A stretch of DNA of 64,000 nt, taken from Candidatus Poseidoniaceae archaeon (GTDB taxonomy: Archaea > Thermoplasmatota > Poseidoniia > Poseidoniales > Poseidoniaceae). The stretch lies in assembly GCA_030747785.1 (NCBI GenBank), contig JASLKC010000026.1, positions 68,967-132,966 on the forward strand. Direction: 5' to 3'. The notes under the pieces are model-generated. The model had not been told where the DNA came from, searched no databases, and saw nothing but the letters and a program-made list of their open reading frames with translations. A program made the position numbers and the translations under genes. Positions 15,054-19,333 of the stretch are shown piece after piece. How positions within the stretch are numbered: the first letter of the stretch is position 1; every line of letters begins with the position of its first letter.

Positions 15054-16097
15054 ATGAGTGCAGGAGCGTCCATGGACCTCATGGGCGCGGCTTGGATGGT
15101 ACGCGAACTTGGCGAGCCAGTAAGCGCCATCCATATCCTTGCAGATGGCGGAATTATCGCTGGAGGATGGAATGGGGTTTTGAAACATTGGAGCGATGAA
15201 GGAGATCTCATTTGGGAGGTTGATTGCGATGACCGAATTGAGAGTATCCTCATCAACCAAGATAGAGTCATTGTCACTAGTGGACTCCACATTACTTGTA
15301 TCAAAGAAGGAAGTATCGAATGGTCTCATGCCTTAGAAGGCTCATCAGATATGCTTTGCATGCACAAGGGAAAAGTCATTGCCACTTCAAGTGTGTATGA
15401 TATTGAGCATGGCGATTTTATGGAGAGCGCAATTTGGAAATATAATCTCGAAGGCGAACTTATCGAAGTAGAGAGAATTGATGAACGCCCGTGGTTCATC
15501 GAATCTTCGAAGGAATTACTGTTAGCATTAGGGAGACCCCGATGTGGGATATTGCAAGGAAAAAAGCATAGCAGCCTTGCAACTGAACATCCTGTTACTT
15601 GTGGAATTAGTGGGCGTGAGCGCACACTATTGGGTCATTCTGATGGTACAATTTCTTCAAGCAAAGGAGAATTGATATCTTCGGAAGAAGATTCAATCGA
15701 CTCCATTATTTGCACTGATTACGGCTTTGTAGCATCCATAGAAGGCGGGTCGCTAATCGCTCGAAATTCTGCAGCAGAACCTCTCTGGTCAGCCCGAGGT
15801 AGCCAGGTAATTTGCCATACAGAAGGGTTTTCTTCAACACATTGGGCGGGCCGTTTTGAAACAATAGACGGAATTCTCGAGATTAGAAGCTCCAATGGCG
15901 AGATGATTGCATCGATGCGAACATCGCGACCTAGGGTCGCTCATACCAACCAAAATCGCGTCGGATTTGGTTTCGAAGATGGCAAGGTAATCATCTGGGA
16001 AAAGGAATTATTTGAACGTAGAATCGACAGTGAAGAATCAGAGGTAGATGATAGAAAATCACGACTTGCTGAACGCCTCAGATCCTTACGTTCTTGA
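15054..16097 (+). CDS. Beta-propeller repeat protein (PQQ/WD40-like)
   Basis: 347 aa with repeated short beta-strand units (GGWNGVLKHWS.EGDLIWE, similar units downstream). Confidence 0.5.
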   Translation: MSAGASMDLMGAAWMVRELGEPVSAIHILADGGIIAGGWNGVLKHWSDEGDLIWEVDCDDRIESILINQDRVIVTSGLHITCIKEGSIEWSHALEGSSDMLCMHKGKVIATSSVYDIEHGDFMESAIWKYNLEGELIEVERIDERPWFIESSKELLLALGRPRCGILQGKKHSSLATEHPVTCGISGRERTLLGHSDGTISSSKGELISSEEDSIDSIICTDYGFVASIEGGSLIARNSAAEPLWSARGSQVICHTEGFSSTHWAGRFETIDGILEIRSSNGEMIASMRTSRPRVAHTNQNRVGFGFEDGKVIIWEKELFERRIDSEESEVDDRKSRLAERLRSLRS

Positions 16098-16100
16098 GTG

Positions 16101-16119
16101 TTATTTTCGTTATTATTTT
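16101..16119 (+). terminator. Oligo-T tracts immediately after the stop codon of the beta-propeller gene
   Basis: TTATTTTCGTTATTATTTT starts 4 nt after the TGA at 16095-16097. Archaeal termination commonly uses such T-runs. Confidence 0.3.
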
Positions 16120-16140
16120 CCATTGGACCCATTGGAAATA

Positions 16141-17045
16141 TTACACGCAACCCCCCGTTTCCAGTGGAAAAAGGGGCAGATTTAGCGTAAAGTTTATGGT
16201 CCCCCGCCCCCCACGGGAAAAGTGCTGCTCCCCGGGGAGTGGTGGAGAGTCCTTCCGAGGACTTTCCGGGACCCTTGCCAACCGGTCAGCCCGAACCGGG
16301 CGCAGAGTTGGTCGCACATCCTCGAGAGGGGGAGTGCGAGGTGTGTAGGGGAGGCCGTTTCGACGGCAAGCCTGACCACACCCACAGGACATCAGGAGCT
16401 TCGGCGATCGATGTGCCGGCAAATCTTCACGGAGATGTCGGAACAGGGAGGGCCTCCGCTTCGGTGGAGGATGACCCGACACTGTGCAAAAACAGCCGGG
16501 AAGGGTGGCGAGACAGGTTTTCGGACCGACTTCGTCACATGGAACGGCTAGGTGTGAAGCTTCGGCTGAAACACCACCTCAGTCAGCAACTGACCCATTT
16601 CGGTGGGACAGCCAGGGGCCGAGGAATGGGACGGAAACGGATCAACACCTTCGGGAGTTGAAAACCGCGCCGAACCATAGGGAAGGAGACGGACTAGCAC
16701 CTTCGGGAGCTGGAAACCGCGCCGGACCACCAGGGTGTGAACTGAAATCCCCTCGGGGAAGGAAGTGAGCATTCGGGAAGCGGAAGGGAACTCTTCGGAG
16801 TGACTGAAAGCGACCCCCAGGGAAGAAAGCCTTCGGGCGGACTGAACTGGACCTAGGCTGTCGGGAAGAAGGCCTCTTTCGGGAGGTCAACGATCTAAGG
16901 AAGATTCTCTTCGGAGGATAAGAATTGGTGACGACGACTCGATGGCCGTCAGCGGAGGCTGGCAGGGGGGCGGATATCCCACCCGGATGAAACCCCCCTA
17001 CCAGTTCTCCCATCCTGCATTCACAGGTAATTCGGCGCCTGTCAA
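16141..17045 (+). ncRNA. Candidate large structured non-coding RNA of unknown class (boundaries +/- 50 nt)
   Basis: GC-rich about 0.9 kb between convergent genes. The only ORFs are mutually overlapping low-complexity artefacts. There are at least 14 TTCG tetramers on the + strand, and at least 10 sit in hairpins with complementary arms. There is also an internal duplicated module with a compensatory base-pair change, and a possible 9-bp long-range helix 16204-16212/16965-16973. Confidence 0.55.
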
Positions 17046-17102: not shown

Positions 17103-18518
17103 TTAATCATGGCCAGTCATAGACTCGGGCCTAACCCACTCTTCGAATTCTTCAGCGGTTACATATCCCATTTCTAGAGCAGATTCACGGAGAGTAGTTC
17201 CCTTTTCATGAGCATTCTTTGCAATCTTTGCAGCCTTATCATATCCAATATGATTGTTTAGAGCTGTTACAAGCATTAGCGAATTCTCAAGATGGTTATT
17301 GATAACATCAACATTTGGCACGATTCCTTCAACACACTTGGTTCTGAACGCTTTCATGGAATCGCTCAAGATTCGAGCACTGTGCAATAAATTGTGAATC
17401 ATCATAGGTTTGTAGACATTCAATTCGAAATTACCTTGAGAGCCACCAATAGTAATGGCAGTATGGTTACCCATTACTTGGCAACATACCATTGCCAATG
17501 CTTCAGCTTGGGTTGGATTTACTTTACCAGGCATTATCGACGAACCAGGTTCATTTGCAGGAAGTGACAATTCTCCTAAGCCACAACGAGGACCTGAACC
17601 TAACCAGCGCACATCATTAGCGATTTTCATCAAACTAACAGCTAATGTGTTTAGCGCTCCAGATGCAGCCACTACTGCATCATGGGCTGCAAGTTGTGCG
17701 AATTTGTTGGGGGCTGAAACGAAAGGTAGCCCCGTTTTTTCAGCAATAGATGCGGCAACCCTATCTGCAAATTCTGGATGTGTGTTTAGTCCAGTTCCAA
17801 CTGCAGTACCTCCAAGTGCTAATTCATGGAGATCGATTAGAGCAAATTCGATTCTTCGAATATTAGCATCGAGTTGAGAGACCCAACCGCTCGCTTCTTG
17901 TCCAAGGGTAAGAGGAACCGCATCCATCAGATGGGTTCTTCCAATTTTTACGATATCGCTCCAAGCCTCAGATTTTTCTGCTAAAGAATCTCTTAGAGCC
18001 TTCAGATTTGGCAATAATTCATGCGTAAATGCTTCAGCTCCAGCGATGTGCATTGCTGTTGGAAATGTGTCATTAGATGACTGTGCTCGATTGACGTGGT
18101 CGTTAGGATGTACCGGTGATTTGGAGCCAAGTACCCCTCCAGCCATCTCGATAGCACGGTTTGCAATCACTTCATTGGAATTCATGTTCGATTGAGTGCC
18201 CGAACCAGTTTGCCAAATCCTCAAAGGAAAATGAGAATCAAGGTCACCGCTGATGACTTCTTCTGCGGCTTCAATAATTAGTTTTGCAACAGCAGAATCA
18301 AGTTCTCCCAAATCACAATTCACCCGAGCAGCAGCCTGTTTAAGGATACCAAATGCACGGATGACACCGCGAGGCATTTTATCCTCTCCAATATCGAAAT
18401 TTATCAGTGACCTAGCGGTCTGGCAACCGTAGTATCTATCGGCAGGAACCTCGAGTTCCCCCATGGTATCGGCCTCAACGCGGACATCTCCCATGATGTA
18501 ACCGGCGAAGGCGGTCAT
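17103..18518 (-). CDS. fumC: Class II fumarate hydratase
   Basis: [16 protein letters not shown] signature (the fumarase C variant rather than aspartase) and N-terminal [17 protein letters not shown]. The start is either ATG 18518 or 18494. Confidence 0.85.
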
Positions 18519-18592
18519 CCATGTCCCTTTCCCTTCCAGTCCCCTTAGGGACTGCGGAATCGTGAATACGAACCTCCCCGACCCCACAAACA

Positions 18593-19333
18593 ATGTCGGC
18601 TTACCGATTGGTCTGGTTCCAGCACCTGCACAAGGCTGCAGGAACCTATGTTATCCGAAGGGCAATGGCCAATGGTGAGACCTTTTGGCCAACCCATGAA
18701 AATGGCAATCCAATAGAAGGAGGAGAAGTAATTCCACTTTGGAAGAAGGAAGGGCAAGAACTGACTGATTTCATCAACCGTTGTGAAGCAGATGGAGTTA
18801 CTTTCGTAGCTTGTGAATGGGGAGGGGCAGATTTCTCAATTCTTGCTGACGATGAACGTGTGACTCTACTTACGTGCTTGCGCAACCCCATCAATCGCTT
18901 AATTTCAAATTACAATTATGATCATTATTGGATGTGGACAAAGGCCACAGATTATGTTGGATATTTGGCAGAGGGAAACCTACATTCAACTCCCGAATAT
19001 TACACGCGAATTTTTTCTCGAGTTAACGAAGCCACAAGGAAAGTGGATGAAGAAAATTTACGAATAGCACAAAAAAATCTCGCAGCGTTCGATCATGTGA
19101 TTATCGCTGAAGATGGAATGGATGCATTGAACACCCTAGGTTGGTCAAATGAAAGCGATACGACACACCCTACATTTGGCGACAAGAAGAGGGCGCTGAT
19201 TTTACTGGCAAAATTACGATTTAGGCGCTGGATAAATTACCGTAAAGGAGTGAAACACCTTCCCCCTGAAAGTATGGACATCGAAGGAATGAATCGGCTT
19301 GATTTGGAACTCTATTCTTCACTTAGAAAATGA
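18593..19333 (+). CDS. Sulfotransferase-family-like protein (tentative)
   Basis: 246 aa. The N-terminal [12 protein letters not shown] resembles the PAPS 5'-phosphosulfate-binding loop (h.h.PKtGGT) of Sulfotransfer_2-type enzymes. Confidence 0.35.

Follow-up and report, generated by a model that had tools for sequence, protein, structure and literature searches.

A duplicated arm between a beta-propeller-like gene and fumC

In the 64-kb window, that is, the whole stretch of DNA analysed here, the spacer between a beta-propeller-like gene and fumC carries two adjacent repeats that probably arose when a large structured non-coding RNA had one of its peripheral arms duplicated in tandem, in a lineage-specific manner and with a period of 52 nt. 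According to this explanation, the best of those considered, each copy would be a hairpin-capped arm whose base consists of two strands, S2 (GGRAACGGA, 5' of the stem) and S1 (AAACCGCGCC, 3' of the stem). The repeats lie inside a 1-kb ORF-free gap, more G+C-rich than its surroundings, which is bounded by the stop codons of two convergent genes, the beta-propeller-like gene (15054-16097, + strand) and fumC (17103-18593, - strand).

A preliminary description of this DNA had reported a duplicated 35-nt hairpin module at 16643-16677 and 16695-16729 (the coordinates of the module refer to the + strand throughout). The sequences and coordinates of both copies are exactly right and the duplication stands, but the unit is larger, 50-52 nt: Tandem Repeats Finder and a second repeat search gave a tandem pair at 16628-16677 and 16680-16729, with a period of 52 nt, 84% identity and no indels. 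The sequence AAACCGCGCCGRACCA occurs twice in the 64-kb window for 0.04 occurrences expected, and the module is not repeated elsewhere in the genome from which the window is taken (G000). Both copies are also carried by the sister species, G008, whose gap is 93% identical to that of G000, with 69 substitutions and one 1-nt indel. In these two species, orthologous copies are 94-96% identical and paralogous copies 84-90% identical, indicating that the duplication predates the G000/G008 split; there is no sign of recent homogenisation between the copies.

The presence of the module in only two species would fit a neutral duplication of spacer DNA by slippage, or a DNA or terminator element placed between convergent genes. 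We regard such an origin as very improbable, since the two copies have persisted, with changes that preserve pairing, from before the divergence of G000 and G008, and since the spacer is more conserved than the neighbouring protein: at the loci other than that of G008, the nucleotide identity of the gap is 68-76% though the amino-acid identity of the upstream protein is only 40-61%. Moreover, the module is not dispersed in the genome, and the only terminator-like site, which combines a hairpin with a T-run, is external to the module (16764-16748, minus strand). A dispersed repeat of the REP or MITE kind was likewise rejected, only the locus itself being matched in G000.

Pairing is maintained in the hairpin stems

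Each copy contains a stem-loop whose stem has eight positions rather than the seven previously proposed, the difference being one extra pair. Stem-loop 1 (16642-16661; UCAACACC-UUCG-GGAGUUGA) reads U16642-A16661, C-G, A-U, A16645-U16658, C-G, the A16647-A16656 mismatch, C-G and C-G, followed by the UUCG of a cUUCGg loop; stem-loop 2 (16694-16713; CUAGCACC-UUCG-GGAGCUGG) reads C16694-G16713, U-G, A-U, G16697-C16710, C-G, an A-A mismatch, C-G and C-G, again followed by UUCG. Eight positions differ between the two copies; five of them are paired stem positions, and all five changes are compatible with pairing. More specifically, they comprise (i) the double change from A16645-U16658 to G16697-C16710 and (ii) the wobble-compatible change from C16643-G16660 to U16695-G16712, both correctly recognized in the preliminary description, as was the retention of the A-A mismatch and of the UUCG loop in both copies; and (iii) a second double change, which had been missed, from U16642-A16661 to C16694-G16713.

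Comparison of G000 with G008 reveals two further double changes, at 16697/16710 and 16626/16678. The G16697-C16710 pair is derived in G000, the other three copies having A-U at this place, and A16626-U16678 in G000 is G-C in G008, a compensatory change in the outermost helix of arm copy 1. Across the copies, the top stem pair runs C-G, U-G and U-A, so that the wobble intermediate is seen; in copy 1 of G008, this top pair is U-G and the A16647-A16656 mismatch is a U-A pair. Taken together, the two double changes and one wobble change between copies and the two additional double changes between species bear out the proposal that the stem is under selection for pairing. Note that a C-to-A substitution at 16684 breaks a predicted pair in copy 2 (A16684 opposite G16724, equivalent to 16632-16672); G008 keeps the C at this position.

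By simulation, the probability that all pairs survive five stem substitutions is 0.07 with the observed transition bias and 0.005 with unbiased substitutions, and the joint probability that at least five of the eight substitutions fall in the stem and that all pairs are kept ranges from 0.002 to 0.0001. With the four copies (two species, two copies each), a column-shuffle control was not significant (64 of 500 shuffles), and 94% of the cells were paired in the structure for 20-44% in slid controls. The substitutions are concentrated in the stem, none of them affecting S1 or S2 in the four copies.

Predicted fold of the two arms

The minimum free energy structure computed on 16620-16745 consists of two separate extended hairpins (-40.8 kcal/mol), in which AUGG pairs with CCAU. 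The layout of arm copy 1 (16626-16678, of which 16628-16677 is repeat copy 1) is AUGG/GA/CGG/AAA/CGG/A/8-bp stem with UUCG loop/AAA/CCG/CG/CCG/AA/CCAU, with pair probabilities of 0.92-0.99; arm copy 2 (16680-16728) has the same architecture, with pair probabilities of 0.84-0.91. In copy 1, S2 (16633-16641; GGAAACGGA), whose GG(A/G)AACGGA pattern is also present in 23 other species, is predicted to pair with S1 (16662-16671; AAACCGCGCC), and the same holds in copy 2 for S2 (16685-16693; GGAGACGGA) and S1 (16714-16723; AAACCGCGCC); the S2:S1 pair probabilities are 0.92-0.97 in copy 1 and 0.87-0.88 in copy 2. The CCG/CGG pairs of S1:S2 never vary, so they carry no covariation support. We infer that S1 pairs with S2 from the predicted energy, from the stacking of this pairing on covarying helices and from the 16626/16678 pair. 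A single long hairpin of 104 nt, in which the two copies would pair with each other, was rejected: its energy is -32.0 kcal/mol, 8.8 kcal/mol worse than the two arms, and the copy-specific changes would create A-C mismatches in it. The compensatory changes therefore favour the local stems specifically.

In the preliminary description, S1 belonged to a single-stranded tail, AAACCGCGCCG(A/G)ACCA, which would follow the 35-nt hairpin and dock a protein or an RNA. This part of the description does not hold in the predicted fold, where CCG16665-67 is paired to CGG16638-40, and CCG16670-72 to CGG16632-34 (probabilities 0.92-0.97). A docking tail could account for the invariance of the strand in the four copies and for its conservation across the genus; its CCG never covaries, so that its pairing is unproven. 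Visual inspection of the rest of the RNA revealed no complementary GGCGCGG, which makes a protein or a partner in trans conceivable. However, a complementary conserved strand is found across the hairpin, at the right distance, in every copy and in every species with the typical form described below, pairing is predicted with a probability of about 0.9 or more, and the tail is enclosed by a helix whose closing pair is the compensatory 16626/16678. A single-stranded tail is thus quite unlikely, and the tail of the earlier description would be one strand of the S2:S1 base of each arm.

A permuted two-strand motif in MGIIa

Among the 37 other genomes of this genus (Ca. Poseidoniaceae, MGIIa), 32 have a conserved, syntenic gap, and 19 loci of the genus show the beta-propeller/fumC arrangement. 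When 401 genomes of the order were searched by pattern for a UUCG hairpin placed between ACGGA and AAACCGCGCC, only G000 and G008 had one. The check on homologues proposed in the preliminary description has a mixed outcome: the exact module has one counterpart outside its own genome, in the sister species, and the motif of the former tail, AAACCGCGCC, is conserved across the genus. The pattern TTCGG-N(5-12)-AAACCGCGCCG, used on metagenomes, proved too unspecific to bear on the distribution of the module: the matches listed are unrelated G+C-rich contigs, none of which contains the module.

In the other species, the typical unit, represented by 23 distinct sequences, is GGACGG-AAA-CCG-CG-CC[variable stem, mostly UUCG]GG-(A/G)AA-CGG-A-CCUCC, with invariant flanks. 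The sequence AAACCGCGC is invariant in 19 of these 23 sequences and replaced by UAACCGCGC in the other four. In the RNAalifold consensus of this unit, GGA.GG pairs with CCUCC and CCG with CGG, both helices being invariant, and the variable stem has 11 bp, nine of which show changes on both sides. The two forms have in common a two-strand motif, with S1 being [helix]-AAA-CCG-CG-CC and S2 being GG-RAA-CGG-A-[helix], and differ by a circular permutation: in typical species the hairpin caps the CC/GG end (S1-hairpin-S2), whereas in G000 and G008 it caps the opposite end (S2-hairpin-S1). The intervals between the strands follow this permutation. The S1-to-S2 intervals of typical species, 18-57 nt in length, have folding energies of -2 to -22 kcal/mol (overall mean -10), and the S2-to-S1 intervals that flank the AAACCGCGCC unit (12-15 nt) fold at about 0; a few of these species also have a single S2-to-S1 interval that is longer and structured. 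The situation is reversed in G000 and G008, where the S2-to-S1 intervals (21 nt) fold at -5 to -11 kcal/mol and the S1-to-S2 interval does so weakly (-1.5 and -4.3 kcal/mol).

These data also bear on another pairing scheme, in which the strands of G000 would associate in the register of typical species, S1 of copy 1 (16662-16671) with S2 of copy 2 (16685-16693) and S2 of copy 1 with S1 of copy 2, to form a four-way junction in which the local UUCG hairpins are kept and the S1 copy 1/S2 copy 2 pairing spans a small CCGAACC-AUA-GGGAAGG hairpin. Such a junction would keep the S1-hairpin-S2 orientation of the 23 other species, and the CC/GG that closes the variable stem elsewhere is present here (CC16670-71 and GG16685-86). 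With -37.7 kcal/mol, this register is only 3.1 kcal/mol worse than the two arms in a nearest-neighbour model that gives no credit for G-A pairs in the GAA/GAA loop. Nevertheless, its probability in the ensemble is about 0.02, the S1-to-S2 interval folds weakly, as just mentioned, and it would place 16626 opposite 16730, giving A-C in G000 and G-U in G008 where the two-arm fold gives A-U and G-C. We therefore consider the junction unlikely and retain two separate S2-hairpin-S1 arms for G000 and G008.

Typical species carry about three S1-hairpin-S2 units in tandem, in the central domain of the RNA, which makes the iteration of arms a genus-wide theme. In a tree of the two flanking proteins rooted on a second genus, G000 and G008 branch outside the crown clade of species with the typical form, as does a pair of species whose RNAs are short and devoid of the motif; bipartition support is 1.0 and the position of the root is weak. 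As to the short versions, the aligned stretch is about 730-810 nt in G005 and G004 (L019 and L025), the RNA itself measures about 560 nt in the genus g16 (L199), and all three keep both conserved cores of the RNA without any S1/S2 arms. The central arms are thus dispensable for whatever the cores do.

Possible role of the S1:S2 motif

The observations above can be assembled into a model in which the 8-bp, cUUCGg-capped stem would act as a structural cap or spacer, its sequence being free to drift as long as pairing is kept. At the base of the arm, S2 and S1 would pair through a 3-bp CCG/CGG helix lying between A-rich asymmetric internal loops, and this two-strand motif, not the stem, would be the functional part, kept by selection at the sequence level, possibly as a platform for a tertiary contact of the A-minor type or for a protein. 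The central domain would then grow and shrink by duplication and loss of arms. More tentatively, and with less confidence than we place in the duplicated arm itself, AAACCGCGCC/GGRAACGGA might be a previously undescribed, permutation-tolerant modular motif, engaged in protein binding or tertiary contacts; a new large archaeal non-coding RNA would repeat it two to three times in its central domain, with the copy number tuned by tandem duplication, as in a multivalent scaffold or sponge.

Some modular RNA motifs made of two strands, for example kink-turns and tetraloop receptors, are found in both connectivities. S1:S2 resembles them in being a conserved pair of strands with a short helix and asymmetric A-rich loops, closed by a hairpin at one end or the other in different lineages. 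Unlike a kink-turn, it lacks the 3-nt bulge followed by tandem sheared G-A pairs that constitutes the L7Ae site, and the 11-nt sequence of the tetraloop receptor is absent from it; no known motif was matched. Inspection at the sequence level also led us to reject a K-turn reading of the internal loops, in which CCG or CGG, rather than GA, comes after the AAA bulges. As for the cap, both copies qualify as cUUCGg tetraloop hairpins, with UUCG closed by C-G on a Watson-Crick stem; such a cap is a generic stabiliser and says nothing on function.

A parallel for the behaviour of the arms is provided by the expansion segments and variable arms of rRNA, RNase P RNA and SRP RNA, where peripheral helices are gained, lost and duplicated on a conserved core from one close lineage to another and where, as in the module, pairing is kept and sequence is not; the parent RNA itself falls outside all of these families. 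The module is a real sub-feature of an undescribed RNA, and an anatomical detail of that RNA. What is new here is the permuted two-strand motif, together with compensatory evidence obtained both within the molecule and from the sister species. The duplication and the sister species thereby provide internal evidence that an intergenic kilobase of an archaeon folds as RNA on the + strand, and they separate structural constraint, borne by the stems, from sequence constraint, borne by the S1 and S2 strands. They also suggest that arms are duplicated, lost and re-capped as the variable centre of the RNA evolves, and S1/S2 offers experiments a 20-nt two-strand target, far smaller than the 850-nt RNA.

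The candidate parent RNA

The parent element is a candidate large structured non-coding RNA of MGIIa (Poseidoniaceae), located on the + strand between the beta-propeller-like gene and fumC; it would extend over roughly 850 nt (about 0.85 kb), from 16200 to 17045, both ends being approximate. Its G+C content is 57%, compared with a background of about 45%. TTCGG occurs 13 times on the + strand of the gap, for two occurrences of CCGAA, and 41 times in the remaining 63 kb of the window. The gap folds at -352 kcal/mol (z = -4.1). In an alignment of 30 sequences, a 5' core (approximately 16225-16330) and a 3' core (approximately 16930-17030) are nearly invariant and the centre is variable. A helix of the 3' core covaries within the genus (GGCAGGGGGG/CCCCCCUGCC and GGCAAGGGGG/CCCCCUUGCC), and the covariation continues in another genus (AGGUAGAGGGG/CCCCUCUACCU). 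The 3' core helix CUGGCAGGGGGG/CCCCCCUACCAG (16959-17004) contains a C-A mismatch (UACCAG) in G000, G008 and G004 (L025), most species having UGCCAG.

A BRE/TATA-like sequence, GCGTAAAGTTTAT (16185-16197, + strand), occupies conserved columns of the 30-sequence alignment upstream of the conserved 5' core, and we infer that it is an archaeal promoter. The assignment to the + strand rests on this conserved motif, on the 13-to-2 strand bias of UUCG and on the U-G pairs, which would be A-C on the opposite strand; transcription of that strand and the position of the RNA ends are likewise deduced from these features of the sequence.

Searches for a known identity were conducted along several lines. 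A scan of the gap against Rfam gave no match at gathering or permissive thresholds, and none was obtained at E <= 0.01 in 12 loci (11 homologues and one copy of the window's own region). The sole weak match, whalefall-1 at 16222-16272, over the conserved 5' core, scored 23.9 bits for a threshold of 37 (E 0.0017); it did not recur at E <= 0.01 in these 12 loci and is probably due to chance. RNase P RNA and SRP RNA were rejected as identities because those of G000 are found elsewhere (RNaseP_arch at G000:C54:23109-23405 and Archaea_SRP at G000:C57:36320-36622); the archaeal RNase P RNA in the assembly also supports an archaeal host. A coding function was rejected as well: none of the four ORFs over the region has a Pfam match, and three of the four are frameshifted by a 1-nt indel relative to G008 at 16569.

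Archaea of marine Group II (MGII) are abundant and uncultured. Full-text searches of the literature returned nothing on structured non-coding RNAs of MGII or Poseidoniales, and we know of no large orphan structured RNA class described in Archaea. The parent RNA resembles the large orphan 'ornate' RNAs of bacteria and phages (OLE, RF01071; GOLLD; ROOL), which are several hundred nucleotides long, highly structured and ORF-free, with conserved cores and many hairpins. The likeness to OLE, GOLLD and ROOL is one of kind, not of homology: the parent RNA is archaeal, has no Rfam match and has a centre made of iterated UUCG-capped arms.

Three further features of the locus deserve mention. First, a conserved direct repeat and palindrome lies upstream of the TATA-like box, at 16116-16171 (TTCCAnTGGA, CAGTGGAAA and, about 30 nt later, TTTCCnnTGGAAAA). 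Its arms (16116-16127 and 16160-16171) are 92% complementary and are kept in all 30 homologues, some of the differences being pair-preserving; it may be either the binding site of a regulator or a 5' hairpin of the RNA. Second, in a feature involving 16204-16212, 16950-16958 and 16965-16973, the 5' end GCCUCCGC of typical species, which is CCCCCGC here, is complementary to GCGGAGGC of the 3' core. The two could form a closing helix, a pairing that competes with the CCGCCCCCC/GGGGGGCGG pairing put forward in the preliminary description; if the TATA-like box is a promoter, the 5' segment with GCCUCCGC may be untranscribed. Third, the parent RNA contains a second, older internal duplication, GCTTCGGCGATCGATGTGCCGGCA (16398-16421) and GCTTCGGTGGAGGATGACCCGACA (16458-16481), the two copies being 60 nt apart and 71% identical, suggesting that other arms of the RNA also arose through tandem duplication.
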